Assembly (NCBI GenBank): GCA_964642305.1 | Contig: CAZXOE010000001.1 | Span: forward strand, 58,917-122,916 | Direction of reading: 5' to 3' | Source: an uncultured Candidatus Saccharibacteria bacterium | GTDB taxonomy: Bacteria > Patescibacteriota > Minisyncoccia > Phycocordibacterales > UBA1550 | DNA length: 64,000 nt | Shown here: in pieces, positions 6,031 through 49,858 of the stretch | How the letters are laid out: each line of letters opens with the position of its first letter | How positions within the stretch are numbered: the stretch's first letter is position 1 | Program-made: the position numbers and the translations under genes | The notes under the pieces: generated by a model | Databases searched by the model: none | Seen by the model: only the letters and a program-made list of their open reading frames with translations | Told to the model about the DNA's origin: nothing

Positions 6031-7701
6031 ATGTTACGAATACCACTTACAATCATATTAGGAGTTATCTTATTTTTTGCAGGCACAGCTCAAGCTGCCA
6101 CACTTTTTTTTACGCCTGGAACCGGCGAATTTGGTCTAGACAAAGAAATCGTTGTTGATTTAAAAATTGACAGCGAGAGTGTGGGTGTGAACGCGGGCCA
6201 GGCAACGATCCGCTTTCCAAAGGAAATGCTTGAAGTAAAGTCCGTGGATAAAACAGACTCTGTATTCAACTTTTGGCTTGAAGAACCGTCATTTTCAAAC
6301 ACTGACGGCGTGATAACATTTGTTGGCGGGACTCCATACGGCATTTCTGGGGCATCTATCAATGTTCTTCGTATTACTTTTACAACAAAAAGCACTGGTA
6401 CTGCCGTGCTATCATTTGCAGATAGCGCTGTTACAGCGTCCGACGGAAGCGGAACCAATGTGTTGTCCAAATCAAAAGAGGCTGGATTCACAATTACGGG
6501 AGAAACTGTTCCTCCCGTGATCACGCCTCCAACACAAATCAAAAGGGAACCAGCGCCTGCAGTCGGATTGCCAGCAAAACCTGTAGTAAGCGTGTCACTT
6601 TATTCCAACCCAGCGGAATGGTATGGTCATTCCAATGCCTTCACCACAACATGGGCGCTTCCATTAGATGTTTCTTATGTGGCTACTGCTCTAAATAAAC
6701 AACCAAATTATACTCCATCTGTAAAAGAGGGACTCTTTGACAACAAGATGTATCAAGCGCTTTCTGACGGTATTTGGTATCTTCATGTGCGGTTCCAAAA
6801 CGACATTGGATGGGGTCCCACCACCCACTACCGCCTGGCAGTGGACACAAAAACTCCGCTTCCTTTTGAGATTACCTCAAACGAAAGTGAAACAACTGAT
6901 AATCCAACACCAGAGTTTGTTTTTAAAACAAACGACGCTCTGTCTGGTATGCGTGAATATAGAGCGCGAGTTGACAACGAAAACTGGATAACAATTCCCG
7001 CAAAGGACTTCAAGGGGTCATACAAGCTAGCACCACAAAATCCGGGAAAACACCATTTAACAATCCGAGCGGTAGACAACGCAGGTAATAGTATAGAAAA
7101 TACATTTGACTACGAAACGATTCCGCTCGCATTGCCAACCTTTACTTTTGTTACTGACAAACTTTTCTCGGACACCACGGCAGGATTGTCATTCAATGGA
7201 ACAGCGTTGCCATCCACTGAAATACTCTTTGTGCTTAAAAAAGGAGATGCTGTTATTACAAACAACACGATAAAGGTAGACAGTAGCGGTAACTGGGCGT
7301 TCACATATGGCGAGTCACTCCGCAATGGTCGCTACATTGCAACAATTCAAAACATGGACGCTCGCGGAGCGCTTTCACTTATTATCATGGCGCCGGAGAT
7401 TGTAGTTACAGGAAGGTACACCACTGCAGTAACAACCTTAGTTATCATACTTATTGGCGCGCTTTTTGGAGGGTTTTGGTTTTATGAGCGACGTCGTGAG
7501 CGAACAAAACTTCGCATTCAAGTAGCAGAGAGAGACGCTGCAAATGTATTTAACATGATTAAGACTGACGTTGAAAAACTTGAGGACGCGCAGAAAACGT
7601 CTACTCCCGCTGATGATCAGTTCATTGCAGACAAACTGAAAAAGAACGTAGATAAAATGGGTTCGTATGTGAAGGACACGATTGGCAGGGCGAGGGAGTA
7701 G
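6031..7701 (+). CDS. cell-surface protein with N-terminal cohesin-like domain, signal peptide and C-terminal TM anchor
   Basis: ATG at 6031 (MLRIPLTIILGVILFFAGTAQA) is 2 nt after the upstream stop. Residues ~30-150 (GEFGLDKEIVVDLKIDSESVGVNAGQATIRFPKEMLEVKSV...DGVITFVGGTPYGISGASINVLRITFTTKSTGTAVLSF) match the cohesin beta-sandwich pattern. C-terminal hydrophobic helix AVTTLVIILIGALFGGFWFY precedes a charged tail. Confidence 0.75.
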   Translation: MLRIPLTIILGVILFFAGTAQAATLFFTPGTGEFGLDKEIVVDLKIDSESVGVNAGQATIRFPKEMLEVKSVDKTDSVFNFWLEEPSFSNTDGVITFVGGTPYGISGASINVLRITFTTKSTGTAVLSFADSAVTASDGSGTNVLSKSKEAGFTITGETVPPVITPPTQIKREPAPAVGLPAKPVVSVSLYSNPAEWYGHSNAFTTTWALPLDVSYVATALNKQPNYTPSVKEGLFDNKMYQALSDGIWYLHVRFQNDIGWGPTTHYRLAVDTKTPLPFEITSNESETTDNPTPEFVFKTNDALSGMREYRARVDNENWITIPAKDFKGSYKLAPQNPGKHHLTIRAVDNAGNSIENTFDYETIPLALPTFTFVTDKLFSDTTAGLSFNGTALPSTEILFVLKKGDAVITNNTIKVDSSGNWAFTYGESLRNGRYIATIQNMDARGALSLIIMAPEIVVTGRYTTAVTTLVIILIGALFGGFWFYERRRERTKLRIQVAERDAANVFNMIKTDVEKLEDAQKTSTPADDQFIADKLKKNVDKMGSYVKDTIGRARE

Positions 7702-7757
7702 TTGCGACAAAGTCGCACATGTGACAATTAACAATTGACATTTGACTTGAATACAAA

Positions 7758-7790
7758 AGAGAGGGTTTGCGCGAAGCGCAAACCCTCTCT
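7758..7790. terminator. bidirectional hairpin (AGAGAGGGTTTGCGC gaa GCGCAAACCCTCTCT) between convergent cohesin and SET genes
   Basis: Perfect 15-bp inverted repeat followed by TTTGTCAGTTGTTAGTTGTTTTTCC on +. An A-rich tract precedes it on +, which reads as T-rich for the minus-strand gene. Confidence 0.55.
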
Positions 7791-7793
7791 TTG

Positions 7794-8210
7794 TCAGTTG
7801 TTAGTTGTTTTTCCACACGGCTCGCACCTGCATCCATACGGCTTGATATACTCATCAAAGTACTCCTCGCCATAGTCATAGTTGAGCTCCTCCCCTGCTT
7901 CTATTCGTTTTATTGATTTTATAAACACACGCCCTCCTATAATATCCACCTCGCAGTTTGGCTTGCAGGAGTGGTTTATATACCTCGCAGTGTTTGAGCG
8001 CGCGCTGCCGTCAATCATTCTTACAGCGCTTGTTTCAAACAAATACTTATTCTCCGGGTACTCTTCAACCTCTTTTCTCCCGTTTATAAGCTTGCCAACG
8101 TATTCAATAATCCAAGTTCCTCGTTTAATAGGTTCCTCGGCAAAGAGCCCAAGCCCAGCTTTTGACTTCTTTACTTTGTATTTAACATTCCCTATTTTTG
8201 GAATTGGCAT
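7794..8210 (-). CDS. SET-domain protein (putative protein-lysine methyltransferase) with post-SET Cys cluster
   Basis: GLGLFA (GxG), RYINHSCKPNCEV (NHSCxPN), EELNYDYG (ELxxDY), and CRCEPCGK post-SET. 138 aa. Confidence 0.85.
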   Translation of the reverse strand: MPIPKIGNVKYKVKKSKAGLGLFAEEPIKRGTWIIEYVGKLINGRKEVEEYPENKYLFETSAVRMIDGSARSNTARYINHSCKPNCEVDIIGGRVFIKSIKRIEAGEELNYDYGEEYFDEYIKPYGCRCEPCGKTTNN

Positions 8211-19575: not shown

Positions 19576-19616
19576 CCGACTTCTTGAGTCGTGCTCTTTA
19601 CCACATCAGCGTTCAA

Positions 19617-19675
19617 TATAAATCTCACCCAATAATAAGGTAGCGACCGCTACCTTATTATTGGGTGAGATTTAT
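19617..19675. repeat. family-1 long palindrome, copy a (ATAAATCTCACCCAATAATAAGGTAGCG acc CGCTACCTTATTATTGGGTGAGATTTAT)
   Basis: Perfect 28-bp arms. Second copy at 20319..20367. The two copies bracket the PaaX-like gene at 19720..20304. Confidence 0.8.
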
Positions 19676-19719
19676 AACTATGAAGTTTAAATAGGTAATA
19701 AGTATGATTGTGGGTTTTA

Positions 19720-20304
19720 CTACTTAAGCTCAAAATATTTCCTTACCCATTTGTCATTTTCTATAGAATCCGCGATTATGTACAAAATCTCCTTCCCTAT
19801 TTTATAGTCTGCCTTAATAAGCGTTATAATCTCCTCACAGTTATATGGGAATACCCACACGCTGTTTTGTAACTTAAGGAAGCCTATTTGCTGAAGTTTT
19901 TTTCTAAATTTCTCGCGAGTTCCTTTCCTTTTTTCGCGAATATCAAATATTATTATTCGCCATTTTCCATCCCACTTCCTAGGTTTAATAGACTTAAATT
20001 CATTTCGCTCAATAAGCCTGAGTGTTCGCTCGCCACCCTCGGTTAATCTCAAAAAAACACCTTTTTCTGTTTCCTTCCACGCAACCAGTCCTTTGTCGCG
20101 TAATCTCTTGATTGCATTATTTACTGCGTATCTTCTATTTTCACTATCTTTTTTATTTGGATCAATATGCCTCAATACAGAGAGAACGTTAGGCATTGCC
20201 AATGCGATGCTGATCACTCCTACAGTATACAGAGAAGTCAATACAGCCCTCTGAATTTTTGAGTTACGCATCCTCTTTTTCAGTTTTTCCTCAGCTGTAT
20301 GCAT
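19720..20304 (-). CDS. PaaX-family-like transcriptional regulator paralog (wHTH + Cas2-like C-terminal region)
   Basis: N-terminal hydrophobic stretch (VLTSLYTVGVISIALAM) then wHTH-like segment (AIKRLRDKGLVAWKETEKGVFLRLTEGGERTL). C-terminal WDGKWRIIIFDI...LQNSVWVFP resembles the PaaX C-terminus and the Cas2 core. Paralog at 35152..35703. Confidence 0.55.
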   Translation of the reverse strand: MHTAEEKLKKRMRNSKIQRAVLTSLYTVGVISIALAMPNVLSVLRHIDPNKKDSENRRYAVNNAIKRLRDKGLVAWKETEKGVFLRLTEGGERTLRLIERNEFKSIKPRKWDGKWRIIIFDIREKRKGTREKFRKKLQQIGFLKLQNSVWVFPYNCEEIITLIKADYKIGKEILYIIADSIENDKWVRKYFELK

Positions 20305-20318
20305 TCATAAATTCTATC

Positions 20319-20367
20319 ACACCTCCCAATAATAAGGTAGCGGTCGCTACCTTATTATTGGAGGGTG
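20319..20367. repeat. family-1 long palindrome, copy b (CACCTCCCAATAATAAGGTAGCG gtc GCTACCTTATTATTGGAGGGTG)
   Basis: Shares the core CCAATAATAAGGTAGCG..CGCTACCTTATTATTGG with copy a. Sits immediately upstream of the PaaX-like gene start. Confidence 0.8.
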
Positions 20368-20428
20368 AGTAAGTTGATAATTAAATACTTATTATAAATA
20401 ATAATAAATAATATTTTTCTAACCTAAA

Positions 20429-20974
20429 TTAGTTGGTGACTTCGCTCCACGCGGAACCGGTGATTTCACCGTCAGAGTTCAATGTAACGACAACCTGCAA
20501 TGTTCGCTTATTGGCATTCATTATTCCTTTTGATGTTATGGTCTTTGAGGTAGCGTCGCCAGTCACCTGCACCTTTGCGCAATCTTTAGACAGGGTGCAT
20601 CCATTCGTACTGAAATCAACTGAATAACAATCGGTAGTCGCGCAAAGATATGTTTTATTGCGAGCGATTTTAATAAGCGCGTCTCGAGCGCCGGACTCTG
20701 CGTAAAAATGCGCACGTGACGACTGCGCGCTTCCCTGTGAAATAAAAAGCTCGGTAAAAGAAAGCGTGGTGATGCTCACGGCAACCACTAGCGCCATCAC
20801 ACCAAGAAGCATGACTGTTGGGAGAGTTGCGACACCGCGGGAGCGCAAAGCACTACAACTGACCACTGACAGCAGACCACTGACAGCAGATTTTCGCTTC
20901 GCGAAAATCTGCTGGTTTGTTTGAGTAGTCGCGTAAGTTGTAAGTTGTAAGTTGTAAGTTGTCATTTGTTTCAT
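20429..20974 (-). CDS. pseudopilin-like protein (prepilin-type N-terminus lacking Glu5)
   Basis: ALRSRG|VATLPTVMLLGVMALVVAVSITT resembles a class-III signal with minor-pilin features. Start is ambiguous: ATG at 20974, or in-frame GTG/TTG giving leaders MVSCSALRSRG / MRSRG. The 5' end carries 4x GTAAGTT heptamers and the palindrome at 20884..20914. Confidence 0.55.
   Translation of the reverse strand: MKQMTTYNLQLTTYATTQTNQQIFAKRKSAVSGLLSVVSCSALRSRGVATLPTVMLLGVMALVVAVSITTLSFTELFISQGSAQSSRAHFYAESGARDALIKIARNKTYLCATTDCYSVDFSTNGCTLSKDCAKVQVTGDATSKTITSKGIMNANKRTLQVVVTLNSDGEITGSAWSEVTN
20884..20914 (-). promoter_or_regulatory. 31-nt hairpin CAGCAGATTTTCGC gaa GCGAAAATCTGCTG flanked by inverted ACAACT(G/T)AC heptamer arms, in the 5' region of the pseudopilin gene
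   Basis: Same palindrome occurs at 43253..43279 upstream of pilM, in the same orientation relative to the gene. Arms: 20851..20883 and 20933..20960 (4 perfect GTAAGTT units). Confidence 0.5.
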
Positions 20975-20976
20975 CT

Positions 20977-21555
20977 CTACCTAAGCGTTACTGTCGTGCG
21001 AAGCGAATCTTCGTATGTCCAATCGCTACTCTCTGCATTGTATCTCATTGTCATCAGTACCTGAACCGCTGTAGTAGTGGCAAGAAGCACTGAGTTGTAG
21101 TTTTCAATACGTGTAAACGTTGGCACATCCACTGTAACATAGCTTCCAGTAACAGCATCCGGCGCGCCGGCATTAACCTTTCGACGCAGAGTCCCGTCCA
21201 ACATATCGTAAAAAATAGTATCCCCTGACACAGTGAGCGACAGCGTGCTACCTGGAGCGCCAAGCGTGGGCGCAGAAATAGCTGTGGCATTCTTTACATC
21301 CTGCTTGATGAGCTCGCCTGCAAAGCGAATCGCGGAGTTTATCTCGCTCCGCGCTTCTGACTGCCCGCGTCCCTTTGAAAGCATTATAAACGCGTCAGAA
21401 ACAATCACCATAAGACCGGACAAGAGAGCAATGTAAATCAGAAGCTCCAGGAGAGAGATACCGCGAGTACGCGAACAACTTACAACTGACAACTTACAAC
21501 TTACAACTGACCCAAAAATACTATTCGATGCTTTTGTTAAATATTTTCTATTCAT
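20977..21555 (-). CDS. prepilin-type N-terminal cleavage/methylation domain protein (pseudopilin)
   Basis: RTRG|ISLLELLIYIALLSGLMVIV is a class-III signal peptide with Glu5. The track start at 21561 is a TTG; the ATG is at 21555 (MNRKYL...). An in-frame TTG gives the shorter leader MSVVSCSRTRG. Five GT(A/C)AGTT heptamers lie within the leader-coding region. Confidence 0.75.
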   Translation of the reverse strand: MNRKYLTKASNSIFGSVVSCKLSVVSCSRTRGISLLELLIYIALLSGLMVIVSDAFIMLSKGRGQSEARSEINSAIRFAGELIKQDVKNATAISAPTLGAPGSTLSLTVSGDTIFYDMLDGTLRRKVNAGAPDAVTGSYVTVDVPTFTRIENYNSVLLATTTAVQVLMTMRYNAESSDWTYEDSLRTTVTLR

Positions 21556-21632
21556 AGTCAATTATCACTCTTGTTCTTATTGTATCTTGTATTCTGTTAG
21601 TTGTCAGTTGTTTGTCGTTAGTTGTTCTCCCA

Positions 21633-22925
21633 CTACGGCGCCCAGTTTACCACCACATCCTCTACTGTTGGCGTATATGTTCCGGCGTCTGTACAGTTAT
21701 TTGAGCAAATGCGAATCTTGTAGCGGAAGTATCGTTTATTGTTCCATGCAGACCGGCATAGCTCAGCGTCTGTAGCTAATAATCCCACAAGCTCAACAGG
21801 GGTGCCAGGAGTAGGCGCATCAAACCAGTCTCCCGACGCGCATGTTGCGCCTCCAATATATGTCCATGGCCCCCCTGCACTATCAGAAGCAGAGAACTGA
21901 AAACCAACCTTCCCCTCATTTGAGCCAGGTCCACCGAGTGTTCCCTTCCACATTACCGAGTTGTACCCTGCCCCATCGGCGCTTCCTGTTGAGTCAAAAA
22001 CTGCTGAAGTAAGTATGCCGAAAGCAGGCATACCTCCACACGCTGGCGGTTTGTACCTGTGCGTCTCAGTCATTTTGATTCCAAGTCCATAGATCGTCAC
22101 ACCTGAAGGGTTGAAGTTGAGAGTGTATGAATATGTTCCAGCAGAGATTGGTGCGATTTTCCCGCTCGTGTCTTTATAGTCCAATTCAAACGGAGTCGGT
22201 GTGGCTCCGACATTGGGTAACGTAAATGTTTTTGATGTCCCTGCATCAGCATCAATCATAAATGTAATACTTCCGGTTCCCGTGTAAACGCCTGACGCAG
22301 TGAAATGAAGTGATTTCACTGGATTTGGAACACCGGTTAGATTGTCACCAATGTAGAGATTGAATAGGTATGACTGGTTTGTAGAGACTATCACGTTAGA
22401 ATTTGCCACAAGAGTTTCGGTGGTTTTTATTTTTTCATTTGATGGAGAGCCGTCTGCGCATGCCGGAGGTACATACCGATGCGACTCTGTCATCCTTACG
22501 CCCAATCCATAAATTGTTACCCCTGAAGGGTTGAAGTTGAGAGTGTATGAATATGTTCCAGCAGAGATTGGTGCGATTTTCCCGCTCGTGTCTTTATAGT
22601 CCAATTCAAACGGAGTCGGTGTGGCTCCGACATTGGGTAACGTAAATGTTTTTGATGTCCCTGCATCAGCATCAATCATAAATGTAATACTTCCGGTTCC
22701 CGTGTAAACGCCTGACGCAGTGAAATGAAGTGATTTCACTGGATTTGGAACACCGGTTAGATTGTCACCAATGTAGAGATTGAATAGGTATGACTGGTTT
22801 GTAGAGACTGCGGTATCGGAGCTACCAATAATACTTTCTGTGGTTTTAACCTGATCAGCGGCAAAAGCCGCGTAGCTAATGAGACCAAAACCAAGTATTG
22901 AAAAAAGTATATGAAAAATCTTCAT
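21633..22925 (-). CDS. secreted protein with two tandem 140-aa repeat domains
   Basis: Signal peptide MKIFHILFSILGFGLISYAAFA. Protein segments ...STNQSYLFNLYIGDNLTGVPNPVKSLHFTASGVYTGTGSITFMIDADAG... occur twice. DNA 22103..22389 is identical to 22523..22809. Confidence 0.7.
   Translation of the reverse strand: MKIFHILFSILGFGLISYAAFAADQVKTTESIIGSSDTAVSTNQSYLFNLYIGDNLTGVPNPVKSLHFTASGVYTGTGSITFMIDADAGTSKTFTLPNVGATPTPFELDYKDTSGKIAPISAGTYSYTLNFNPSGVTIYGLGVRMTESHRYVPPACADGSPSNEKIKTTETLVANSNVIVSTNQSYLFNLYIGDNLTGVPNPVKSLHFTASGVYTGTGSITFMIDADAGTSKTFTLPNVGATPTPFELDYKDTSGKIAPISAGTYSYTLNFNPSGVTIYGLGIKMTETHRYKPPACGGMPAFGILTSAVFDSTGSADGAGYNSVMWKGTLGGPGSNEGKVGFQFSASDSAGGPWTYIGGATCASGDWFDAPTPGTPVELVGLLATDAELCRSAWNNKRYFRYKIRICSNNCTDAGTYTPTVEDVVVNWAP
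22103..22809. repeat. intragenic tandem direct repeat, period 420 bp, 287 bp identical in both copies
   Basis: Lines beginning 22101 and 22521 are identical through ...ggtttgtagagact, and weaker similarity extends ~60 bp further 5'. Confidence 0.85.
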
Positions 22926-33048: not shown

Positions 33049-33136
33049 GATTTCTTATATGTGACCTTATCGTAATTATACAACAGTTTTTGTTTTTATT
33101 TGAATTTTTGCACCCAAACTTAGAGCGAGCGCACCT

Positions 33137-33248
33137 CTTTTTGACAGGGTCCGCAGGTGCTTTGCTTGGCTCGGGCGGTACCCCGCACGAAAAGCACCGA
33201 GGATTAGCGAGCCTTCCGCAGGAGAAGGCGTGGCGCCCTGTCAAAAAG
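33137..33248. ncRNA. 112-nt structured intergenic element between pilB and pilC (candidate cis-regulatory RNA or small ncRNA)
   Basis: Closing stem CTTTTTGACAGGG / CCCTGTCAAAAAG (13 bp). Internal hairpins: GGTGCTTT...AAAGCACC (enclosing GCGG-tacc-CCGC) and GCCTTC-cgcagga-GAAGGC. The sequence is GC-rich relative to its surroundings. Strand is undetermined. Confidence 0.35.
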
Positions 33249-33265
33249 ACGATGCCGAGCGACCT

Positions 33266-34984: not shown

Positions 34985-35083
34985 TGCCTTTATATTATAT
35001 CATGCAAAAAATAAATATGCTCTGTGTATAACCATACAGCGTACATATACGGCAACCAAGTGGCCCACAAATAGCCGATAAAC

Positions 35084-35123
35084 CACAGCTATCCCCATTT
35101 TCTACCTATAGGTAGAAAATGGG
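35084..35123. repeat. family-2 palindrome copy 1 (CTATCCCCATTTTCTACC tata GGTAGAAAATGGGGATAG)
   Basis: Perfect 18-bp arms. Further copies at 35733..35772 and 38113..38154. Copies 1 and 2 bracket the PaaX-like paralog. Confidence 0.8.
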
Positions 35124-35151
35124 GATAGTGAACGGCATACTATACGCTCAA

Positions 35152-35703
35152 TTACGAGAGTCCGAAGTACTCCTTAAGCTTGCCCACACCTTCGATCTCT
35201 TTTGCCTTAATATAAATGATGTGGTCTCTTACTCCGAAAAATTCTCCGACGAAATCAATTTCGTTCTTACAAAGATATGGCGACACAAAAACAGATTTCT
35301 GAATCGGATATAGTCCAAGGTCTTTTATCTTTCGACTTACTGCGCTCCGTGCTAGTTTTTTCGACTCTGGAATATCAAACATCACAATGCGCCAAAAGCC
35401 ATCCCATTTTTTTGGCGTCTTAAGCTTCATATCATCAAGGTTGTATTCAAGAACTTTTTTCTTGCCTGCTTTTGTTATTTCCACAACTTCATTACCATTA
35501 TGTGTATAAATATTTATTAACTTCTTTTCATGAAGCCCTTTAATTGCCCTCTTAACGCGATACCTATCCCGCGCGCTTTCTGGTTTAAATAAAGGAACGA
35601 TTTTTGTGAGTCCAGGCATAGCAAGGCACGCAACAAGAAATCCGCCGAGTGCTAGACCTATTAATATCTCTTTGGCAAGCTCTCCATTTTTATAATCCTT
35701 CAT
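35152..35703 (-). CDS. PaaX-family-like transcriptional regulator paralog
   Basis: Same architecture as 19720..20304: hydrophobic N-term (ILIGLALGGFLVACLAM), wHTH-like segment (AIKGLHEKKLINIYTHNGNEVVEITKAGKKKVL), and WDGFWRIVMFDIPE...IQKSVFVSP. Confidence 0.55.
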   Translation of the reverse strand: MKDYKNGELAKEILIGLALGGFLVACLAMPGLTKIVPLFKPESARDRYRVKRAIKGLHEKKLINIYTHNGNEVVEITKAGKKKVLEYNLDDMKLKTPKKWDGFWRIVMFDIPESKKLARSAVSRKIKDLGLYPIQKSVFVSPYLCKNEIDFVGEFFGVRDHIIYIKAKEIEGVGKLKEYFGLS

Positions 35704-35732
35704 AATATATACTCATGTACTATTGTATCATA

Positions 35733-35772
35733 CTATCCCCAAATTCTACCTATAGGTAGAAAATGGGGATAG
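35733..35772. repeat. family-2 palindrome copy 2 (CTATCCCCAAATTCTACC tata GGTAGAAAATGGGGATAG)
   Basis: Two arm mismatches relative to copy 1. Confidence 0.8.
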
Positions 35773-35816
35773 TATGACACCAGAATATATTACTTTGAAT
35801 TACTAAACTCTGGTTT

Positions 35817-35910
35817 CTCGTCATTGTGAGAAAGTACTCTTGCGAAGCAACCCAGTGTTTCTCGCGCATAATCCTGGATTGCTTCACTTCGCTCGCAAAG
35901 ACAATGCAGG
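35817..35910. repeat. imperfect-palindromic MITE/REP-like element, copy A
   Basis: gtcattgtgag...gcgaagcaacccag...ctggattgcttcac...gctcgcaaagacaatg; arms pair (cattgt/acaatg, gaagcaacccag/ctggattgcttc). Related copy at 39753..39829. Confidence 0.6.
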
Positions 35911-36010
35911 AATATTGGAGTTTCGTAATTCAAGGTATATTAGGTGGCGAAATATATCAACTGAATACTATTATCCAAATTGAATCCGATGTTCTCATTA
36001 ACAAACAAAC

Positions 36011-36715
36011 CTAGAGCTTGAGGAGCGGGTAGAGATTTAGGGCGGTGAGGATTGGAATGGCGTAGATTAACGCGACTGGAGACGCGAGAAGAAATGATGG
36101 AGGGAGAGGGATGCGTTCAATACCGTAAATGAAGCGAGCACCGATTGAGAGTAAAATTGCAGAAATAAGCCCTATAGGCAAAAGCACAATGACTCCGGGC
36201 CACCCAGAAATAAGCATTGCAAGCACGATTAGCATAATATCCCCTTCCCTAAAATTGATTGGGTGTGTTTTAGAACGCACTATAAGGAATAGCAAAAACA
36301 ACCCTACAACAATGAGTAACGCAATAGTGCTTAAGAAAAAATGTTGAAATGAATAGAACGCAAAGTATCCATTGGGTCCATCAAACAAAGGACGAAGAAA
36401 TTCAAAGTACGACGGAAACGGGACTTCTTTTGTAAGCGGTGATGAAAGAAATACTTTTGTAAACTCACTCTTGCTCCACACAATATACTGTCCACAGGTG
36501 GCAACTATGCCATATAAAATGTGCAGTCCTATAGCAATACCAGCTAGCCAATTATATGAAATGTTTTTTACCCAAAGCGGGCGCATATAACGAACAGCAA
36601 CAATAAAAAAGAATATTGTCCAAACAACCAATTCAATTGTATTTAGGTTTGCGAAGATGAAATTTAACAACATATTGGGCCGAATATTGAATATAAGATT
36701 TAGATATATTAACAA
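36011..36715 (-). CDS. polytopic membrane protein, A24 prepilin-peptidase-like (GDxxL motif); possible PilD/TadV analogue
   Basis: Six or more TM helices. FREGDIMLIVLAMLISGWPG resembles the second catalytic Asp motif (GDVKLLAALG) of type IV prepilin peptidases. The first Asp motif is not evident. Confidence 0.45.
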   Translation of the reverse strand: MLIYLNLIFNIRPNMLLNFIFANLNTIELVVWTIFFFIVAVRYMRPLWVKNISYNWLAGIAIGLHILYGIVATCGQYIVWSKSEFTKVFLSSPLTKEVPFPSYFEFLRPLFDGPNGYFAFYSFQHFFLSTIALLIVVGLFLLFLIVRSKTHPINFREGDIMLIVLAMLISGWPGVIVLLPIGLISAILLSIGARFIYGIERIPLPPSFLLASPVALIYAIPILTALNLYPLLKL

Positions 36716-36807
36716 AAAACTACCTCCTGCGCCAATTTTGTTTTGGTTTTTTCCATAGGTTTAACCTATGGAAACTTTTGGACGTTGGACGTCCAAGAAT
36801 AATTGGC

Positions 36808-37020
36808 TCAATAAAAGCCGTGCAAGCGCTCATGAGCCATTCGTGACATTATCCAGAGATTACTCTTCCTAAAATTTCTTTTATTACCATCTATATGGTG
36901 AACAACCATCCCTGGGAAAATTCTCCCACCGACCATATTGGCCGCTACGGTTCTATGAACCAGGATATTGCTGTCTTTCCATCTAGGATATCCTTTTTTA
37001 TCTATATATTTATTATCCAC
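36808..37020 (-). CDS. small HNH endonuclease
   Basis: VHHIDGNKRNFRKSNLWIMSRMAHERLH is an HNH motif with an His-Asn...His triad. 70 aa. Confidence 0.7.
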   Translation of the reverse strand: MDNKYIDKKGYPRWKDSNILVHRTVAANMVGGRIFPGMVVHHIDGNKRNFRKSNLWIMSRMAHERLHGFY

Positions 37021-37073
37021 AGTTTTGGTACCCTACACTAAAATACTGATTATGTCAAGTCGTGCGTAATGGT

Positions 37074-37981
37074 TCAATAGCTTGGACGCGATACAATAAA
37101 TATCATGTCATACACAACAAACCCCAACATGCCTAAAGTTCGCCGTGATGCGGCGCAAATGGTGTACAAAGGATATTCAAAAGCAGAGGTCGGGAGAAGG
37201 TTCGGTGTAGGGTCCAGCACCATTTGTAAGTGGGTAAAGAAAGCAGAGAAGTATGGATATTACCCAATCCCTACTCTTTCCTCTCGACCCAGACACCACC
37301 CCAAGGAACTTCCAAGTGATCTTGTGTGGAAAATCTTTGGGCAGAGAGTTAAGAGTAAGCGCTGCGCGGAAGTAGTGCATCAAGAACTCAAGAATGATGG
37401 AGTTGAAGTTTCGCTGTCATCGGTAAAGCGTGTGCTTGATCGTGCAGGACTTACGAAGAAGAGGAGCCCTTGGAAGCGCTACCATCCGCACGTAGATCGT
37501 CCACTTCCTAAAAACCCTGGTGATTTGGTCGAAATGGACACCATTCACCTAATGGTAGACAAGAAGAAGCGCATCTACGTCTTTGTGCTCATTGATGTTT
37601 ACTCCCGCTGGGTATATGTAAAAGCGTATGAACACATGAACAGCCTCCAGATGCTTCGGTTTGTGCGTGAGGCACAAAGAGCTGCGCCGTTTCATTTCTC
37701 GATGCTCCAGAGCGACCACGGACCAGAGTTTGGCAAATTGTTCGTCTCTCGTATAAAAAAGGATCATCGGTTTACCCGTATTGGCAAACCAAATGACAAT
37801 GCCCATGTCGAACGGTTCAACCGCACTATCCAGGAGGAATGTTTAGACAGAGTGGATAGTAATGTGCCAGTGCTTAACAAAGCGATTAAGAAGTATGTGC
37901 ATTACTACAACCACACACGCCTCCACATGGGAATTGCATTTTTAGCGCCGATACAATTAATTAATCGCGTCCAAGCTATTG
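37074..37981 (+). mobile_element. IS481-like insertion sequence (~0.9 kb) with 19-bp terminal inverted repeats
   Basis: Left TIR TCAATAGCTTGGACGCGAT (37074..37092) is the exact reverse complement of ATCGCGTCCAAGCTATTGA (37963..37981). Encloses a single transposase ORF. Confidence 0.65.
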
Positions 37982-37986
37982 ACTAG
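37105..37986 (+). CDS. DDE transposase (HTH + rve integrase core), IS481/IS3 superfamily
   Basis: N-terminal HTH (GYSKAEVGRRFGVGSSTICKWV). Catalytic core VEMDTIHL...DHGPEF...NDNAHVERFNRTIQEE carries the DDE residues. Confidence 0.8.
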   Translation: MSYTTNPNMPKVRRDAAQMVYKGYSKAEVGRRFGVGSSTICKWVKKAEKYGYYPIPTLSSRPRHHPKELPSDLVWKIFGQRVKSKRCAEVVHQELKNDGVEVSLSSVKRVLDRAGLTKKRSPWKRYHPHVDRPLPKNPGDLVEMDTIHLMVDKKKRIYVFVLIDVYSRWVYVKAYEHMNSLQMLRFVREAQRAAPFHFSMLQSDHGPEFGKLFVSRIKKDHRFTRIGKPNDNAHVERFNRTIQEECLDRVDSNVPVLNKAIKKYVHYYNHTRLHMGIAFLAPIQLINRVQAID

Positions 37987-38112
37987 AATACGGTCGTGCG
38001 TTCCCTGCATAATCCTACATAGGGTAACCCTATGTAAAATATGCGCGAGATCTATGGGAGATAACTGAGCTTGCCTAGGACGGTCCTAGGTAAATAGGTG
38101 AGTCCTATGGAG

Positions 38113-38154
38113 ACTATCCCCAAATCCTACCTATAGGTAGGATTTGGGGATAGT
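38113..38154. repeat. family-2 palindrome copy 3 (ACTATCCCCAAATCCTACC tata GGTAGGATTTGGGGATAGT, perfect)
   Basis: Arm differences relative to copies 1 and 2 are compensatory (AAATC/GATTT versus ATTTT/AAAAT). Confidence 0.8.
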
Positions 38155-38967: not shown

Positions 38968-39666
38968 CTAGAAGTCAGTTCCAGTGCCAAGAATCTTCAA
39001 ATTAGTACCAATCTCATAAAGATTTGAGTTGTTTCCGCCATCTTTTGTAAGCTTGTTATCAGTTCCAGTAGTGTATGTGGTACTTTCTAGGACTGCATTA
39101 ATTTCGAATGCAAGTGGTGTGATAGAGCATGCGTAACGGTAGACATAATCTCCATTATCTACTGCATCGAGGGCTCCAATTGTGTTTACAGGGTCAACAG
39201 GAAGATTTGAAATTGGTGAACCACCGATAAGTGAATCAAAGTTTACGGGGACCCAGCCTGTTCCGTCTGTGAGAGTGTAATATGTCGATGAAGTTGTTGA
39301 TGCTACAGTGGCTCCAGTGGCACCATCAAGATTTGCATCCGTAATAGCACTAGTGACAGAGTAAAATATTTTTGGTGCAAGAGAACCATCCCACGCAGCT
39401 GCAGGGGTTAACTTACAACCATTATTATTGGTAAGTCCTCCAATATACGGCGTTGTTGTGCTCGTTGTATACAACGCAATTGCAGTCTTCATTGTGCTTA
39501 AGTCTGACATACGCTGAGAATCGCGAGACTTTTTCAATGTTTCTGCAGGGTCCAAAACAAGCACAAGAGCTACTGACAAAATTGCGATAATGGAAACCAC
39601 GATGAGGAGCTCAAGGAGAGTGAACCCTGCCTCACGCTTCTCTTTTATATTCATATTCAAATTCAT
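38968..39666 (-). CDS. type IV pilin (major-pilin-like)
   Basis: MNLNMNIKEKREAG|FTLLELLIVVSIIAILSVALVLV. The ORF-track extension to 39840 runs through a repeat element and is rejected. ATG at 39666 (or 39654). Confidence 0.8.
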   Translation of the reverse strand: MNLNMNIKEKREAGFTLLELLIVVSIIAILSVALVLVLDPAETLKKSRDSQRMSDLSTMKTAIALYTTSTTTPYIGGLTNNNGCKLTPAAAWDGSLAPKIFYSVTSAITDANLDGATGATVASTTSSTYYTLTDGTGWVPVNFDSLIGGSPISNLPVDPVNTIGALDAVDNGDYVYRYACSITPLAFEINAVLESTTYTTGTDNKLTKDGGNNSNLYEIGTNLKILGTGTDF

Positions 39667-39752
39667 ATTTATAATTATTAAATTGTTATGGTAATAGTAT
39701 AGCAAACTATATTTAAATAGCACAATGGGGTGTGGATAACTTTTGGGGTGCC

Positions 39753-39829
39753 TGTCATTGCGAGCGGAGCGTGGCAATCCAGAGCAAGCGTGGCGAACTC
39801 CTGGATTGCTTCGTGCCTCGCAAAGACGG
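39753..39829. repeat. imperfect-palindromic MITE/REP-like element, copy B
   Basis: tgtcattgcgagcggagcgtggcaatccag...ctggattgcttcgtgcctcgcaaagacggtg. Shares tcattg(t/c)gag, gcaa(c/t)ccag, ctggattgcttc and ctcgcaaagac with copy A. Confidence 0.6.
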
Positions 39830-39883
39830 TGCGGGCCCATAAATGCACGACCTTGGGCTCAGGATGCGGGCCCATTCAATATT

Positions 39884-43143: not shown

Positions 43144-43252
43144 GGCGTTTAATAAATGATGTACTGTTAACAACTATTGTAGCATGCAAAGAATTATCTT
43201 GGTATACTATTTGAGTACAAACATGTGACATTTAACCATTGACATGTGACTC

Positions 43253-43279
43253 GCAGATTTTCGCGAAGCGAAAATCTGC
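43253..43279 (+). promoter_or_regulatory. hairpin GCAGATTTTCGC gaa GCGAAAATCTGC with flanking inverted TGACA(A/T)TT repeat arms, upstream of pilM
   Basis: Same palindrome as 20884..20914. Arms at 43220..43250 (ACATGTGACATTTAACCATTGACATGTGAC) and 43280..43311 (TGTCAATTGTCAAATGTTAATTGTCAATTGTC). A related arm sequence also occurs at 7717..7749. Confidence 0.5.
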
Positions 43280-43319
43280 TGTCAATTGTCAAATGTTAAT
43301 TGTCAATTGTCCCAAATCA

Positions 43320-46895: not shown

Positions 46896-48557
46896 ATGTC
46901 TCATATGAAAAAAAATATTGAAACTGCGGAGACTATTCGCAAGGCCGGTTTTGAAGGCGAGATTATCTCCGATGTAGCGAATCTCATTAAATACGAAAAC
47001 GACACGAGCCTATTTGAGCTTCGTCCGGAACTCGCGGTCAAACCAAAAGACGTTTCTGATATTAAAAAATTAGTTTCCTTTGTTGCTGACAAAAAAGACG
47101 AGGACTCAACACTGTCTCTCACCGCTCGAGCTGCAGGAACAGGGATGGCAGGAGGCGCGCTCAACGACTCTATTATTGTAGATGTTGCAAACTTAAATCA
47201 TATTAAAAGTGCAAGTACTGAAAGAGTCGTTGTTGAGCCTGGTGTTTATTATCGCGATATGGATACTGAAACAAGAAAGCTTGGCGTTATTATGCCGTCA
47301 TTCCCCGCTTCGCGAAATCTGTGCGCAGTGGGTGGAATGGTAGGTACAAATGCGTCAGGCGAAATGACACTCTCTTATGGAAGCACCGAAAACTGGGTAA
47401 GGCGTCTTAAGGTTGTGCTTTCTGACGGTAATGAATACGAACTTGGGCCATTAACAGAGAGCGAGCTTGCTTTAAAGAAAAACATCAAAGGTTTTGAAGG
47501 AGAGATTTATCGTCGTATGCACGAGCTTGTTGAAGAAAATTACGACATAATTAAACGCGCAAAACCAAAGGTTTCAAAAAACTCCACAGGTTACGCTCTT
47601 TGGAATGTGTGGGACAGAAAAACCTTTGATCTTACAAAGCTATTCACTGGATCTGAGGGTACACTTGGGATTTTTACAGAAATTGAATTTGCTTTGATAA
47701 AACCAAAGGAACATCGTAAGCTAGTTGTGATATTTTTGACTGATTTTAACAAACTATCAGAGGTCGTCACGCAGGTGCTTAAACATAAACCAGAAACATT
47801 TGAATCGTACGACGATCACACGTTTCAATTTGCAATTCGTTTTTTCCCAGATATTGTGAAGTCACTAAAAACAGGGATAGTGAAGCTTGGGCTTTCATTT
47901 ATTCCTGAAGCATTTATGGTGCTACGTGGCGGGTTCCCAAAGCTTGTGCTCCTTGCTGAGTTTACAGGTGATACGGAGGAAGAAGCGATGGGAAAAGCAC
48001 AAATCGCGTATGACGACCTTAAACAATTCCGCGCGCAGATTGAGATAATGAAAACAGAAAAGGATGCTGAAAAGTTTTGGACAATACGACACGAAAGTTT
48101 CAATTTGCTTAGAAAGCACGGTGGAAAAGACAAGACTGCTCCTTTTATAGACGACATAATTGTTGCCCCAGAAAAGCTTCCAATGTTTTTACCAAAACTT
48201 GCCGAGGTGATGAAGGAGTACAAGCTTACATACACTATCGCTGGACACATTGGCGATGGTAATCTGCACATTATTCCCCTGATGAACCTAAGGAACGCTC
48301 GTGACCGCGATATTGTGATGGAGCTTTCACAAAAAGTATTTAACCTCGTGTTTGAATTTGGCGGTTCAATGTCAGCAGAGCACAACGATGGACTCGTTCG
48401 CACTGCGTACCTAAAACAGATGTATGGCGAAAAAATCTATCATTTATTTGAGGAAACAAAAAATATTTTTGACCCTAAAAATATTTTTAACCCTGGCAAA
48501 AAAGTTTATGGACACGACCTTGAATACATCAAGGAACATATTGATAAGGTGTACTAG
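46896..48557 (+). CDS. FAD-linked oxidase (GlcD / D-lactate dehydrogenase family; FAD_binding_4 + FAD-oxidase_C)
   Basis: FAD-binding PCMH region (TARAAGTGMAGGALNDSIIVD, GGMVGTNASG), C-terminal oxidase domain. 553 aa. Confidence 0.85.
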   Translation: MSHMKKNIETAETIRKAGFEGEIISDVANLIKYENDTSLFELRPELAVKPKDVSDIKKLVSFVADKKDEDSTLSLTARAAGTGMAGGALNDSIIVDVANLNHIKSASTERVVVEPGVYYRDMDTETRKLGVIMPSFPASRNLCAVGGMVGTNASGEMTLSYGSTENWVRRLKVVLSDGNEYELGPLTESELALKKNIKGFEGEIYRRMHELVEENYDIIKRAKPKVSKNSTGYALWNVWDRKTFDLTKLFTGSEGTLGIFTEIEFALIKPKEHRKLVVIFLTDFNKLSEVVTQVLKHKPETFESYDDHTFQFAIRFFPDIVKSLKTGIVKLGLSFIPEAFMVLRGGFPKLVLLAEFTGDTEEEAMGKAQIAYDDLKQFRAQIEIMKTEKDAEKFWTIRHESFNLLRKHGGKDKTAPFIDDIIVAPEKLPMFLPKLAEVMKEYKLTYTIAGHIGDGNLHIIPLMNLRNARDRDIVMELSQKVFNLVFEFGGSMSAEHNDGLVRTAYLKQMYGEKIYHLFEETKNIFDPKNIFNPGKKVYGHDLEYIKEHIDKVY

Positions 48558-48617
48558 GAAGCAAGTAAAAATGCCCAGCCACACTAGTGTGGCTGGGCAT
48601 TTTTACTTGCTTCCTAG
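48554..48617. terminator. 64-bp perfect palindrome (CTAGGAAGCAAGTAAAAATGCCCAGCCACAC tag GTGTGGCTGGGCATTTTTACTTGCTTCCTAG) between convergent genes
   Basis: Overlaps both stop codons (the oxidase ends at 48557 and nirK ends at 48614). Internal TTTTT/AAAAA runs make it a bidirectional terminator. Confidence 0.6.
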
Positions 48618-49858
48618 TGTCCCATCTTTTCTGTCATTTCTGGCGTAGGAATTACGCCCTCATATATTTCTTTATTCTCTGAGCCAGTAACACTTATGAC
48701 CCCCCATGCTCCGCGATCAAGACGCGCGAGCGCGTGATCAACGAGGATATAGTTGCCTGGAACATCGAATTTCATCTCAACGATTGCGGCACCTCCAGCT
48801 GGAACTATCGTTGTCTGCACATTTTCAAAAATCGCAGAATTAGGACCCATGGCCGCCTCTGGATATACTCTGTCAAAAATTTCACCAATCACATGAAATG
48901 ATGAGATAAGATTAACTCCGCCATTCCCTACATAAATGCGCGCTGTCTCTCCTACTTTTGCCGACATATTCCCAACAGTACCTTTCACACGACCGTTGAA
49001 TACGATGTACTCCGGATGTCCGTCAAGAAGCTTGTGAGCATCCATAATCTGAAGACCCTTTGTACCCATTTTACCACTTGGATAAAATTCTCCCTGCACC
49101 ACGTAGAATTCCTTATCAACCTTTGGAAGACCCTCTTTTGGCTCAACCAATATGAGTCCGTACATACCATGCGCCATGTGGTTCCCCACATTTGCATGCG
49201 CGCAGTGATAAATATAAAGGCCAGGGTTAAGCATCTTAAAGCTCGCCTTTTTTGTCTCGCCAGGAGCAATGTTTGTCACTACAGCTCCACCTCCAGGGCC
49301 AGTTACAGCGTGGAAATCTATATTATGTGGAGCAACACTCGTGAGATCGTTCGTGATAGTTAAATCAATGGTGTCCCCTTCACGTACGCGCACCATAGGG
49401 CCTGGAACTGTTCCGTTAAAAGTCCAGTAATCTATAAAAACACCTGGAGCAATTTCAGAAATAATATCCTTTGTGACTAAGTCAAGTTTTACACGAGCTG
49501 GTTCCGTGCGGTTGATTGGAGGGGGGACATCGTTTGGGTCGCGGGCAATATCAGATGCTCGCTCAATAGTTTTAAATTTCTTAAAAAAATCAGTGATGTT
49601 TGCAAGCGGTAGCGAGGGATTGGCGCCTGGTCCGTACGTCGTTATTCCAAATGGATATTCAAGTTGATTTGGAAACGCGCGGGGAGAAAAAACGAATACC
49701 ACGATACCAAAAAATACAACAGAAAGCCATATTGCAGTCTTGAGTGAATGAATTTTGCGAAGAACAATAAAAATAAAAAGTCCACCAGCAGCGAGCGCTA
49801 TAAAGAAACCAAATGTTTGAAAAATGACAAACTTAGTAAAATAAAAAAATTCAATCAT
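48614..49858 (-). CDS. nirK: copper-containing nitrite reductase NirK (two-domain multicopper oxidase)
   Basis: Type-2 Cu site HNIDFHAVTGPGGG. Type-1 Cu ligands in YIYHCAHANVGNHMAHGMYGLILVEP (Cys-His-Met). N-terminal TM/signal anchor. Confidence 0.85.
   Translation of the reverse strand: MIEFFYFTKFVIFQTFGFFIALAAGGLFIFIVLRKIHSLKTAIWLSVVFFGIVVFVFSPRAFPNQLEYPFGITTYGPGANPSLPLANITDFFKKFKTIERASDIARDPNDVPPPINRTEPARVKLDLVTKDIISEIAPGVFIDYWTFNGTVPGPMVRVREGDTIDLTITNDLTSVAPHNIDFHAVTGPGGGAVVTNIAPGETKKASFKMLNPGLYIYHCAHANVGNHMAHGMYGLILVEPKEGLPKVDKEFYVVQGEFYPSGKMGTKGLQIMDAHKLLDGHPEYIVFNGRVKGTVGNMSAKVGETARIYVGNGGVNLISSFHVIGEIFDRVYPEAAMGPNSAIFENVQTTIVPAGGAAIVEMKFDVPGNYILVDHALARLDRGAWGVISVTGSENKEIYEGVIPTPEMTEKMGH

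Follow-up and report, generated by a model that had tools for sequence, protein, structure and literature searches.

Short PaaX-like genes flanked by long cognate palindromes in Patescibacteria: candidate autoregulated repressor cassettes

We analysed a stretch of 64,000 nt (the window) from an uncultured Candidatus Saccharibacteria bacterium (assembly GCA_964642305.1, contig CAZXOE010000001.1, positions 58,917 to 122,916 of the forward strand), in which two genes for short PaaX-like proteins are each flanked on both sides by a long palindrome of their own. Each unit is compact and consists of the PaaX-like gene, preceded by its extended -10 promoter, between two copies of one long palindrome. 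We favour, with moderate confidence, the interpretation that the PaaX-like protein of such a cassette represses its own gene and has its cognate palindromic operators of 40 bp within the same unit, and that the cassette is occasionally acquired in one piece.

The second of the two genes (paralog 2; 35152-35703, minus strand) encodes a protein of 183 aa that matches PaaX_M (Pfam PF20803, E = 5e-18) and, as a sequence-only reading of the window had proposed, it is bracketed by two of three palindromes belonging to one family (family 2). These follow the pattern CTATCCCC-N5-CTACCTATAGGTAG-N5-GGGGATAG, which had 0 occurrences in 100 shuffles, and lie at 35089-35128, 35733-35772 and 38114-38153; the earlier positions of copies 2 and 3 were right, and that of copy 1 (35084..35123) was 5 nt too low. 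Copy 1 is a perfect 40-mer located 23 nt 3' of the stop codon of paralog 2 and folds into an 18-bp hairpin (-17.9 kcal/mol, z = -8.5). Copy 2 is found 5' of the gene over the -35/spacer region, where it is a putative operator; it contains two A:A mismatches (interior AAATT/AAAAT) and its symmetry reaches over 35728-35777. Copy 3 is solitary and perfect, is situated directly beyond the terminator of a pilin gene, and with its A/T extension forms a perfect palindrome of 42 nt (38113-38154). For the single-stranded palindromes of this family the predicted folds are hairpins of 18 bp, and the z-scores lie between -6 and -9. The complementary interiors that had been noticed in copies 1 and 3 are indeed kept, both being perfect palindromes: ATTTT/AAAAT is replaced by AAATC/GATTT, so that three positions per arm differ and all are compensated.

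The first gene (paralog 1; 19720-20304, minus strand) encodes 194 aa, also matches PF20803 (E = 2e-21) and is 31% identical to paralog 2 in the alignment. Its palindromes (family 1) were located by repeat scans of the window. Downstream of the gene there is a perfect 60-mer at 19617-19676 with the centre GCGACCGC, and upstream a palindrome at 20322-20364, whose core (20325-20361) matches that of the downstream copy exactly in reverse complement. The centre of family 1 and that of family 2, CCTATAGG, both fit the consensus RCKATMGY, which was derived from the wider family as described below.

A search for homologues returned 994 clusters at 50% identity (E <= 1e-30), nearly all of 180-195 aa; the named family matches are Patescibacteria, with several paralogs per genome, and one homologue carries the name Cas2 in NCBI. 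We sampled 80 homologous loci from GTDB genomes, of which 79 were usable, and compared the upstream and downstream flanks of the gene, 150 nt each, with one another. At 58 of the 79 loci the two flanks share a segment scoring above the best of 79 mismatched controls (12), with scores up to 38, confirming the association of palindromes with PaaX-like genes that had been proposed from the window. The shared segments are locus-specific palindromes of 36-60 nt. A separate scan for palindromes with arms of at least 12 nt found them upstream at 39/79 loci, downstream at 46/79 and on both sides at 30/79, against about 0.02 expected per flank from the remainder of the same loci. The arms, up to 35 nt long, are specific to each locus and the centre is conserved, being GCTATAGC in 23 cases, GCGATCGC in 13 and ACTATAGT in 9, which gives the consensus RCKATMGY. 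The common recognition logic that had been suggested from the CTACC/GGTAG half-sites of both window families did not survive this comparison, since the pentamer is oppositely oriented relative to the dyad in families 1 and 2 and close relatives of family 2 carry CTAGC/GCTAG. The features truly common to the families are the centre RCKATMGY and the 40-bp geometry. We found no published description of this PaaX-like family or of its palindrome architecture in the searchable literature. At one locus (L031) a tandem repeat of 78-nt units (4653-4868; 2.8 copies that are 98% identical, with a 13-bp hairpin per unit) is found directly downstream of the PaaX-like gene; it has no unique spacers and was rejected as a clustered regularly interspaced short palindromic repeat (CRISPR) array.

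The position of the upstream palindrome relative to the promoter is fixed. At 15 of 39 upstream sites the extended -10 motif TGnTAnnnT occurs on the side facing the gene, at a distance of 15-34 nt from the dyad, versus 3 of 127 for all other sides (P = 1.6e-8). Both window paralogs carry such an element, read from the sequence, beside their upstream palindrome: TGaTACAAT for paralog 2 (35722-35730, minus strand; TATGATACAAT, after copy 2 on the gene strand), which abuts copy 2 and leaves 18 nt to the ATG, and TGaTAGAAT for paralog 1 (20311-20319, minus strand; TGATAGAAT, after the family-1 upstream palindrome). The latter leaves only 6 nt between the -10 and the ATG, and therefore the mRNA of paralog 1 is probably leaderless. 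Because it is immediately next to the -10 or overlaps it, the upstream palindrome extends over the -35/spacer region of the promoter that belongs to the gene, and in some cases it reaches the -10 itself. Orthologues retain the palindrome and the -10, and the DNA further out is unrelated.

This arrangement resembles that of E. coli PaaX, whose operator is TGATTC-N27-GAATCA (39 bp) and which represses its own Px promoter through steric hindrance of RNA polymerase (PMC9493321). The outer boxes of family 2, CTATCCC-N26-GGGATAG (40 bp), have the spacing of the E. coli operator, with half-sites approximately 33 bp apart. It is mainly because of this PaaX-like spacing of the outer boxes, together with the promoter position, that the palindrome is read as the cognate operator. 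A dimer of the protein would sit on its 40-bp palindrome with its two winged helices placed at the outer boxes, which in family 2 are CTATCCCC and GGGGATAG and lie about 33 bp from centre to centre, and with a Cas2-like core over the conserved centre. Occupancy of the palindrome would then shut out RNA polymerase and result in autorepression, as with PaaX at Px. The downstream and solitary copies would be further binding sites, perhaps looping partners or roadblock insulators.

The palindromes could alternatively act mainly as RNA hairpins that set and protect the ends of the cassette mRNA, whether terminator-like, as RNase III substrates or as 3'-stabilisers, independently of protein binding; we regard this as improbable. 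The palindromes have stable folds (-13 to -28 kcal/mol as DNA) and strongly covarying arms, the downstream copies begin 0-89 nt past the stop codon, and both downstream copies in the window are marked as terminator-like by a loose scan. Mismatches on the sense strand of downstream copies are G:T in 12 cases versus A:C in 3, a lean that gives a weak hint of an additional role as RNA hairpin. However, T-tracts are not enriched after the downstream copies (25% versus 23% for upstream copies), and the upstream copy, being 5' of the -10, would not be transcribed from the gene's own promoter. Several solitary copies are placed between divergent genes, and the outer boxes and the centre are conserved in sequence and not by pairing alone, and co-diverge with the protein. 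Intrinsic terminators were rejected on account of the missing T-tract enrichment across the family, the loops of 0-4 nt and the A+T-rich arms; true terminators of canonical form in the same genomes look different. Known RNA families were rejected as well, there being no Rfam match and only generic miRNA-hairpin matches below threshold.

The protein itself would be a truncated PaaX-type regulator, in which a winged helix for DNA binding is joined to a Cas2-like domain, the dimerisation module of PaaX. In an AlphaFold2 model of paralog 2 (mean predicted local distance difference test score, pLDDT, 82) the N-terminus forms a winged helix with a recognition helix at about residues 44-59 and a beta wing at 63-76, and the C-terminal part is a ferredoxin-like or Cas2-like PaaX_M domain at about residues 98-180. 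The top fold match in the PDB, over 181 aligned columns in Foldseek, is E. coli PaaX (8a39, E = 1.8e-4), followed by Rv0674; weak sequence matches to MarR/ArsR cover residues 45-88, and a sequence search of the PDB with the Cas2-like domain alone was uninformative. The likeness to PaaX, a repressor that responds to phenylacetyl-CoA (PF07848 + PF20803 + PF08223; PDB 8a39, 3L09), extends to a winged helix followed by PaaX_M and to an inverted-repeat operator, here with a palindrome on the promoter. Both window proteins match PaaX_M above its cut-off of 24 bits and have no other Pfam domain, apart from marginal partial matches to Cas2. Neither protein matches the Pfam PaaX N-terminal domain or PaaX_C (PF08223), the effector-binding region of PaaX, both ending directly after PaaX_M, and against the NCBIfam PaaX model TIGR02277 paralog 1 reaches 48.6 bits, compared with a cut-off of 264.55, and paralog 2 gives no match. 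The cassettes differ from PaaX further in that the whole 40 bp is palindromic, a second copy lies downstream, the cassette is a lineage-specific insertion, and each genome has many paralogs, each with its own palindrome. There are no paa catabolic genes among the cassette neighbours, which are pilus and housekeeping genes.

In the Cas2 model the two proteins score 22.4 and 25.1 bits (cut-off 23.8), the matches covering the first beta-alpha-beta unit including the FD(I/V) aspartate. No cas1, other cas genes or CRISPR array were found at the window cassettes or in the loci examined, and a CRISPR link was rejected on these grounds. Defence and phage families were likewise rejected, having given partial Cas2 matches only. 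Both proteins are, judging from their domain matches, short PaaX-like proteins. They are not PaaX orthologues, because they are without PaaX_C and far below the NCBIfam PaaX cut-off, nor are they Cas2, given the marginal scores, the fusion of the domain to a winged helix and the lack of cas genes in the vicinity.

We then consider the symmetry of the arms. Compensatory change was assessed in 36 distinct sequences, made up of the matches from a metagenome scan with the pattern CTATCCC-N11-TATA-N11-GGGATAG, which leaves 11 arm pairs free, and the copies already collected. All 11 free positions are paired in 16 of the 36 sequences and at least 9 in 21. Paired cells amount to 85%, compared with 54% in column shuffles and 34-44% with slid partners. 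Double-sided changes occur at all 11 pairs, in 106 cells versus 32 expected, and this number was reached in 0 of 500 shuffles, which bears out the compensatory arm changes first seen in the window. Within single loci, in which both sites have to be served by one protein, 88 of 121 differing positions are compensated and 27 are one-sided, counts that are biased as the sites had been found as palindromes. In one orthologous pair, L051 and L055, with 93% protein identity, there is one symmetric substitution. Across genomes the outer boxes and the centre are conserved, and the segment of 3-5 nt between them is variable.

These results show that intrastrand pairing matters for the arms. The earlier suggestion that the compensatory changes are a sign of selection was right in so far as pairing matters; selection for the hairpin is not proven by them, since template-switch correction fits equally well. 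Template-switch 'quasipalindrome correction' is a known mutational process, and it would also account for the arms of up to 35 nt and for symmetry that extends into copy-specific flanks. The strict symmetry at non-conserved arm positions would thus reflect either selection for a hairpin or cruciform, or correction of this kind. Solitary copies in L086, L098, L117 and L119 display symmetry that runs 4-8 nt past the 40-nt core into copy-specific flanks (for example ACATCACA...TGTGATGT), as if the palindromes grow outward by templated copying. A conserved asymmetric variant, CTATCCCAACTATGTAGCTATAGCGNCAAASNNGGGATAG, in which 6-8 of the 11 free positions pair, was seen in the metagenome sequences L089, L092, L096, L118 and L120; it recurs across samples, and consequently perfect symmetry is not universal among sites with the CTATCCC box.

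Both cassettes, with all their palindromes, are lineage-specific insertions that were gained as a block, since the closest relatives keep the flanking genes and have neither the cassettes nor the palindromes. In the relatives compared at the pilus cluster, whose PilB is 94%, 93% and 87% identical, the gene order is preserved: kinase, two response regulators, two pilins, 220-aa protein, PilB and PilC. The space separating the 220-aa gene from pilB is 90-174 nt long in L126 and L122 and in L124 holds the Y1 gene of an IS200/IS605 insertion sequence (IS); the PaaX-like gene and the family-2 palindromes, including copy 3, are absent at the syntenic sites of all three. For paralog 1, the comparison is with four relatives whose ABC permease is 79-84% identical; in these the stop codons of the permease and of a convergent pilin-like gene directly adjoin. 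In the window an 853-nt insertion (19576-20428, no strand), delimited by synteny, lies between these two stop codons and contains palindrome, gene and palindrome with 41 and 67 nt of flank. No obvious target duplication was found at the insertions. Homing into a pre-existing palindrome, which would be an easy explanation for the palindrome being present twice, was rejected for both window cassettes, as the empty sites in the relatives hold no palindrome. Some members of the family are found in contexts conserved across genomes or among orthologues, and near-identical family genes in different contexts were not seen among the collected loci; an active multicopy IS was rejected on the latter ground, and for both reasons the movement of the cassette is occasional and not IS-like. 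The nine closest homologous loci have no synteny with the window beyond the gene itself.

Several observations on the same sites should be recorded here. The Y1 transposase gene of L124 (7147-7836) occupies the spot between the 220-aa gene and pilB that is syntenic to window positions of approximately 35000-36000, and mobile DNAs of different kinds have repeatedly settled in this spacer. Between pilB and pilC, a 23S_rRNA_IVP-family gene is present in L122 (9769-10155), L124 (9763-10149) and L126 (9745-10140); the window has only a 217-nt spacer there (33049-33265), another presence/absence difference in the cluster. The region of L122 that corresponds to window copy 3 contains a solitary 48-nt perfect palindrome (6361-6408) with the GCGATCGC centre typical of the family (ACAATTCATAGCAATAGAACGCGATCGCGTTCTATTGCTATGAATTGT) and a truncated half-copy at about 6931-6952; its cognate PaaX-like gene, if any, is outside the locus.

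Presence/absence variation of the cassettes is also what host site-specific recombinase sites, similar to pdif modules or integron attC sites, would produce, the bounded segments then being exchangeable cassettes. Identical palindromes delimit segments of 0.6-4 kb (window copies 1, 2 and 3, and the loci L014, L073, L051 and L061, where extra copies of the same palindrome are found in neighbouring intergenic spaces), and the centre is conserved family-wide. Nevertheless, we find this explanation very improbable indeed. The arms differ between paralogs in one genome and co-vary with the protein, which argues against one common recombinase, and the segments between extra copies carry essential genes such as that for AlaRS. 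The empty sites keep no palindrome, no integrase was found beside the cassettes in the window or the loci examined, and the palindromes, being perfect, have none of the extrahelical bases that are usual in attC. They also differ from attC in being identical on both sides, with cassettes isolated between housekeeping genes and no neighbouring integrase. Host-recombinase sites and RNA-only hairpins both fit the data worse than a repressor or a mobilising protein does.

Solitary copies occur at unrelated intergenic sites in other genomes, beside LigA/GatC, NusA, RecR, TyrS/PBP1A and a response regulator. Divergent genes flank about 5 of 12 such copies and convergent genes 0-1 of 12, which, although the numbers are small, favours an association with promoters rather than with 3' ends. 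For a repressor they would be a few additional operators in intergenic regions that carry promoters. The same near-identical 40-mers at unrelated intergenic sites by housekeeping genes also speak for a selfish system like that of the repetitive extragenic palindromic sequences (REP) and REP-associated tyrosine transposases (RAYT), or like IS200. The winged-helix and Cas2-like protein would then be a sequence-specific nuclease or strand-transferase that copies or moves the palindromes, recognising its cognate palindrome as a hairpin or cruciform; palindrome, gene and palindrome together would be an autonomous or domesticated unit and the solitary palindromes its non-autonomous derivatives. This is a serious alternative, though in our judgement an unlikely one. 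A more specific and speculative proposal, which we consider doubtful, is that a Cas2-fold dimer cuts the cognate hairpin or cruciform at RCKATMGY and so copies or moves solitary palindromes and the whole unit, as a new class of hairpin-dependent mobile DNA in Patescibacteria.

REP/REPIN-RAYT is the closest architectural analogue of the cassettes. The layout that defines RAYTs, a single-copy gene with cognate palindromic repeats and one repeat family per paralog (PMC3337134), is found here, as are several repeat families per genome and extra intergenic copies. The cassettes and copy 3 are lineage-specific and placed at spots with other mobile DNA (the Y1 gene of L124; DNA resembling miniature inverted-repeat transposable elements, MITEs, in L122 and L128), the arm covariation implies intrastrand pairing, symmetry reaches 4-8 nt into copy-specific flanks, and the Cas2 model matches with the kept 'FDI' aspartate and other invariant polar residues would suit a nuclease. 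However, the protein is not a Y1/HUH transposase: neither HUH/Y1 (PF01797) nor any other known transposase or recombinase domain was matched in the window PaaX-like proteins by Pfam, NCBIfam or the defence and phage families. Gene copies nearly identical to one another are not found in different contexts, and some orthologue contexts are stably conserved. The apparent copy number is low, with 3 copies of family 2 and 2 of family 1 in 64 kb and 3 exact matches on a 190-kb contig, a handful compared with tens to hundreds for REPs. The empty sites are without a palindrome and the insert runs 41-67 nt past the palindromes. The fixed promoter position of the upstream palindrome, which is here part of the promoter, is what a repressor site needs. 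Finally, REPs have imperfect stems of 5-13 bp with a GTAG or CGTC tag (PMC3733652), compared with the mostly perfect stems of 18-30 bp, in untagged near-perfect palindromes of 36-60 nt, described here. With IS200/IS605 the cassettes have in common a unit of about 0.7-0.85 kb, one small gene, subterminal hairpins at both ends and intergenic insertion; they differ in having no Y1_Tnp and no multiple identical copies, and in that both hairpins are the same perfect palindrome.

Several points weigh against an autoregulated repressor and have to be set beside the evidence for it. Binding of the palindrome and repression by the PaaX-like protein are things that we infer throughout, from the observed position and geometry of the sites. 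Protein binding alone is inadequate as an explanation of symmetric differences within one locus, and perfect arms of 20-35 bp far exceed what a winged-helix dimer needs. The similarity of recognition helices is weakly related to that of the arms (rho 0.16, partial Mantel rho 0.10), and one subfamily combines a near-constant recognition helix with very different arms; specific covariation between helix and arm was too weak (partial rho 0.10) and was left out as evidence. No promoters were found beside downstream copies in a family-wide scan of the site flanks. The invariant polar residues of the Cas2-like domain (D110, R119, Q135, S137 and C145) hint at a role beyond dimerisation. The genes next to the solitary copies are unrelated housekeeping genes that form no coherent regulon. 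Lastly, the dispersed 40-mers must be copied DNA, because their near-identity cannot come from point mutation, and this is the behaviour of a repeat element and not of ordinary regulon evolution.

Autoregulators with palindromic operators, such as the controller (C) proteins of restriction-modification systems, offer a further comparison: like the proposed repressor, these are small dimeric helix-turn-helix proteins with a palindromic box overlapping their own promoter. The cassettes described here differ from them in having no linked restriction-modification genes and an operator twice as long, which is duplicated downstream and dispersed. From Cas2 they are set apart by the fusion of the domain to a winged helix, by scores around the Cas2 cut-offs and by the lack of cas1 or a CRISPR array nearby.

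The block between copies 2 and 3 (35773..38112) has a mixed origin. The MITE-like element, the HNH gene and the IS481-like element that had been noticed there were each found again by repeat and domain scans. The MITE-like element (35791-35937, no strand), which is outside the cassette, has imperfect terminal inverted repeats of 37 nt (35791-35827 / 35901-35937, 73% complementary), and a plasmid search gave no match to it. It is followed by a gene for a membrane protein of 220/234 aa (36011-36715, minus strand), belonging to the type IV pilus cluster and 80% identical to its L122 orthologue. As no Pfam or NCBIfam match was found for this protein, its earlier label 'prepilin-peptidase-like' was not confirmed; the gene is an ancestral one of the cluster. 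An open reading frame (ORF) of 70 aa for an HNH_3 endonuclease (36808-37020, minus strand; E = 2e-11) has a homologous block at the same place in L122. The IS481-family insertion sequence (37074-37982, plus strand; transposase ORF 37105-37986) is absent from the relatives and specific to the genome of the window; its terminal inverted repeats of 26 nt (37074-37099 / 37957-37982) are 88% complementary, and the transposase has rve and rve_3 domains and matches NF033577 (E = 2e-49) below the curated cut-off. The idea that mobile DNA had inserted between palindromic module boundaries thus holds for the IS481 element, which is genome-specific, and for the HNH block, common to one relative; it fails for the 220-aa gene, which was there before, the cassettes and the three palindromes being themselves the inserted DNA.

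Around the HNH ORF and the IS481 element there are small hairpins with the pattern CCATAGG-N5-CCTATGG (36750-36774, 38017-38040, 38066-38082 and 38094-38111), and many copies of them, with a homologous HNH gene, fill the intergenic region between the pilin and the 220-aa gene of L122 (6330-7120). They may be a separate family of small mobile elements linked to the HNH gene. A MITE-like repeat family, ACATGTGACA..TTGACATGTGACT with GCAGATTTTCGCGAAGCGAAAATCTGC and an inverted arm, is scattered in the window at 7717-7816, 20854-20914, 21474-21633 and 43221-43310, partly within the 5' ends of pilin-like ORFs, and in L122 (7905-7990) upstream of pilB, where the window has a PaaX-like cassette. Peptides of the type 'CEARSNPG...LPRSARNDR', typical of a widespread palindromic MITE, are encoded at 39600-39840, the N-terminus of ORF 38968-39840, and in the MITE-like element at 35791-35937; the long start of this ORF, the second pilin, is probably an artefact of an element of this kind. 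A 66-nt perfect palindrome at 48553-48618 (centre CACTAGTG, G+C-rich stem, A and T runs) overlaps two convergent stop codons and was rejected as a PaaX-like palindrome, being an ordinary and unrelated bidirectional terminator. The 430-aa ORF 21633-22925 (minus strand), which encodes a putative surface protein in the region of the pilus genes, contains a direct repeat of 300 nt (22034-22333 / 22454-22753; 92% identical, 420 nt apart) and thus an internally duplicated domain.

Since dozens of orthogonal 40-bp palindromes each come with a small protein of their own, DNA recognition by dimers of the PaaX type is directly testable, and the palindrome/protein pairs are potentially useful as orthogonal repressors. 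With gene and sites gained together, copied palindromes dispersed and arms strictly symmetric, the cassettes are also a clean natural system for asking whether a Cas2-fold protein can drive the mobility of repeats and how long perfect palindromes are kept up in bacterial genomes. If the proteins did mobilise their palindromes, they would do what REPIN-RAYT or IS200 does, with a Cas2 fold in place of an HUH fold. Patescibacteria (candidate phyla radiation, CPR) have tiny genomes with few recognisable regulators, and with about 1,000 clusters and several paralogs per genome this family may be among their main DNA-binding families.

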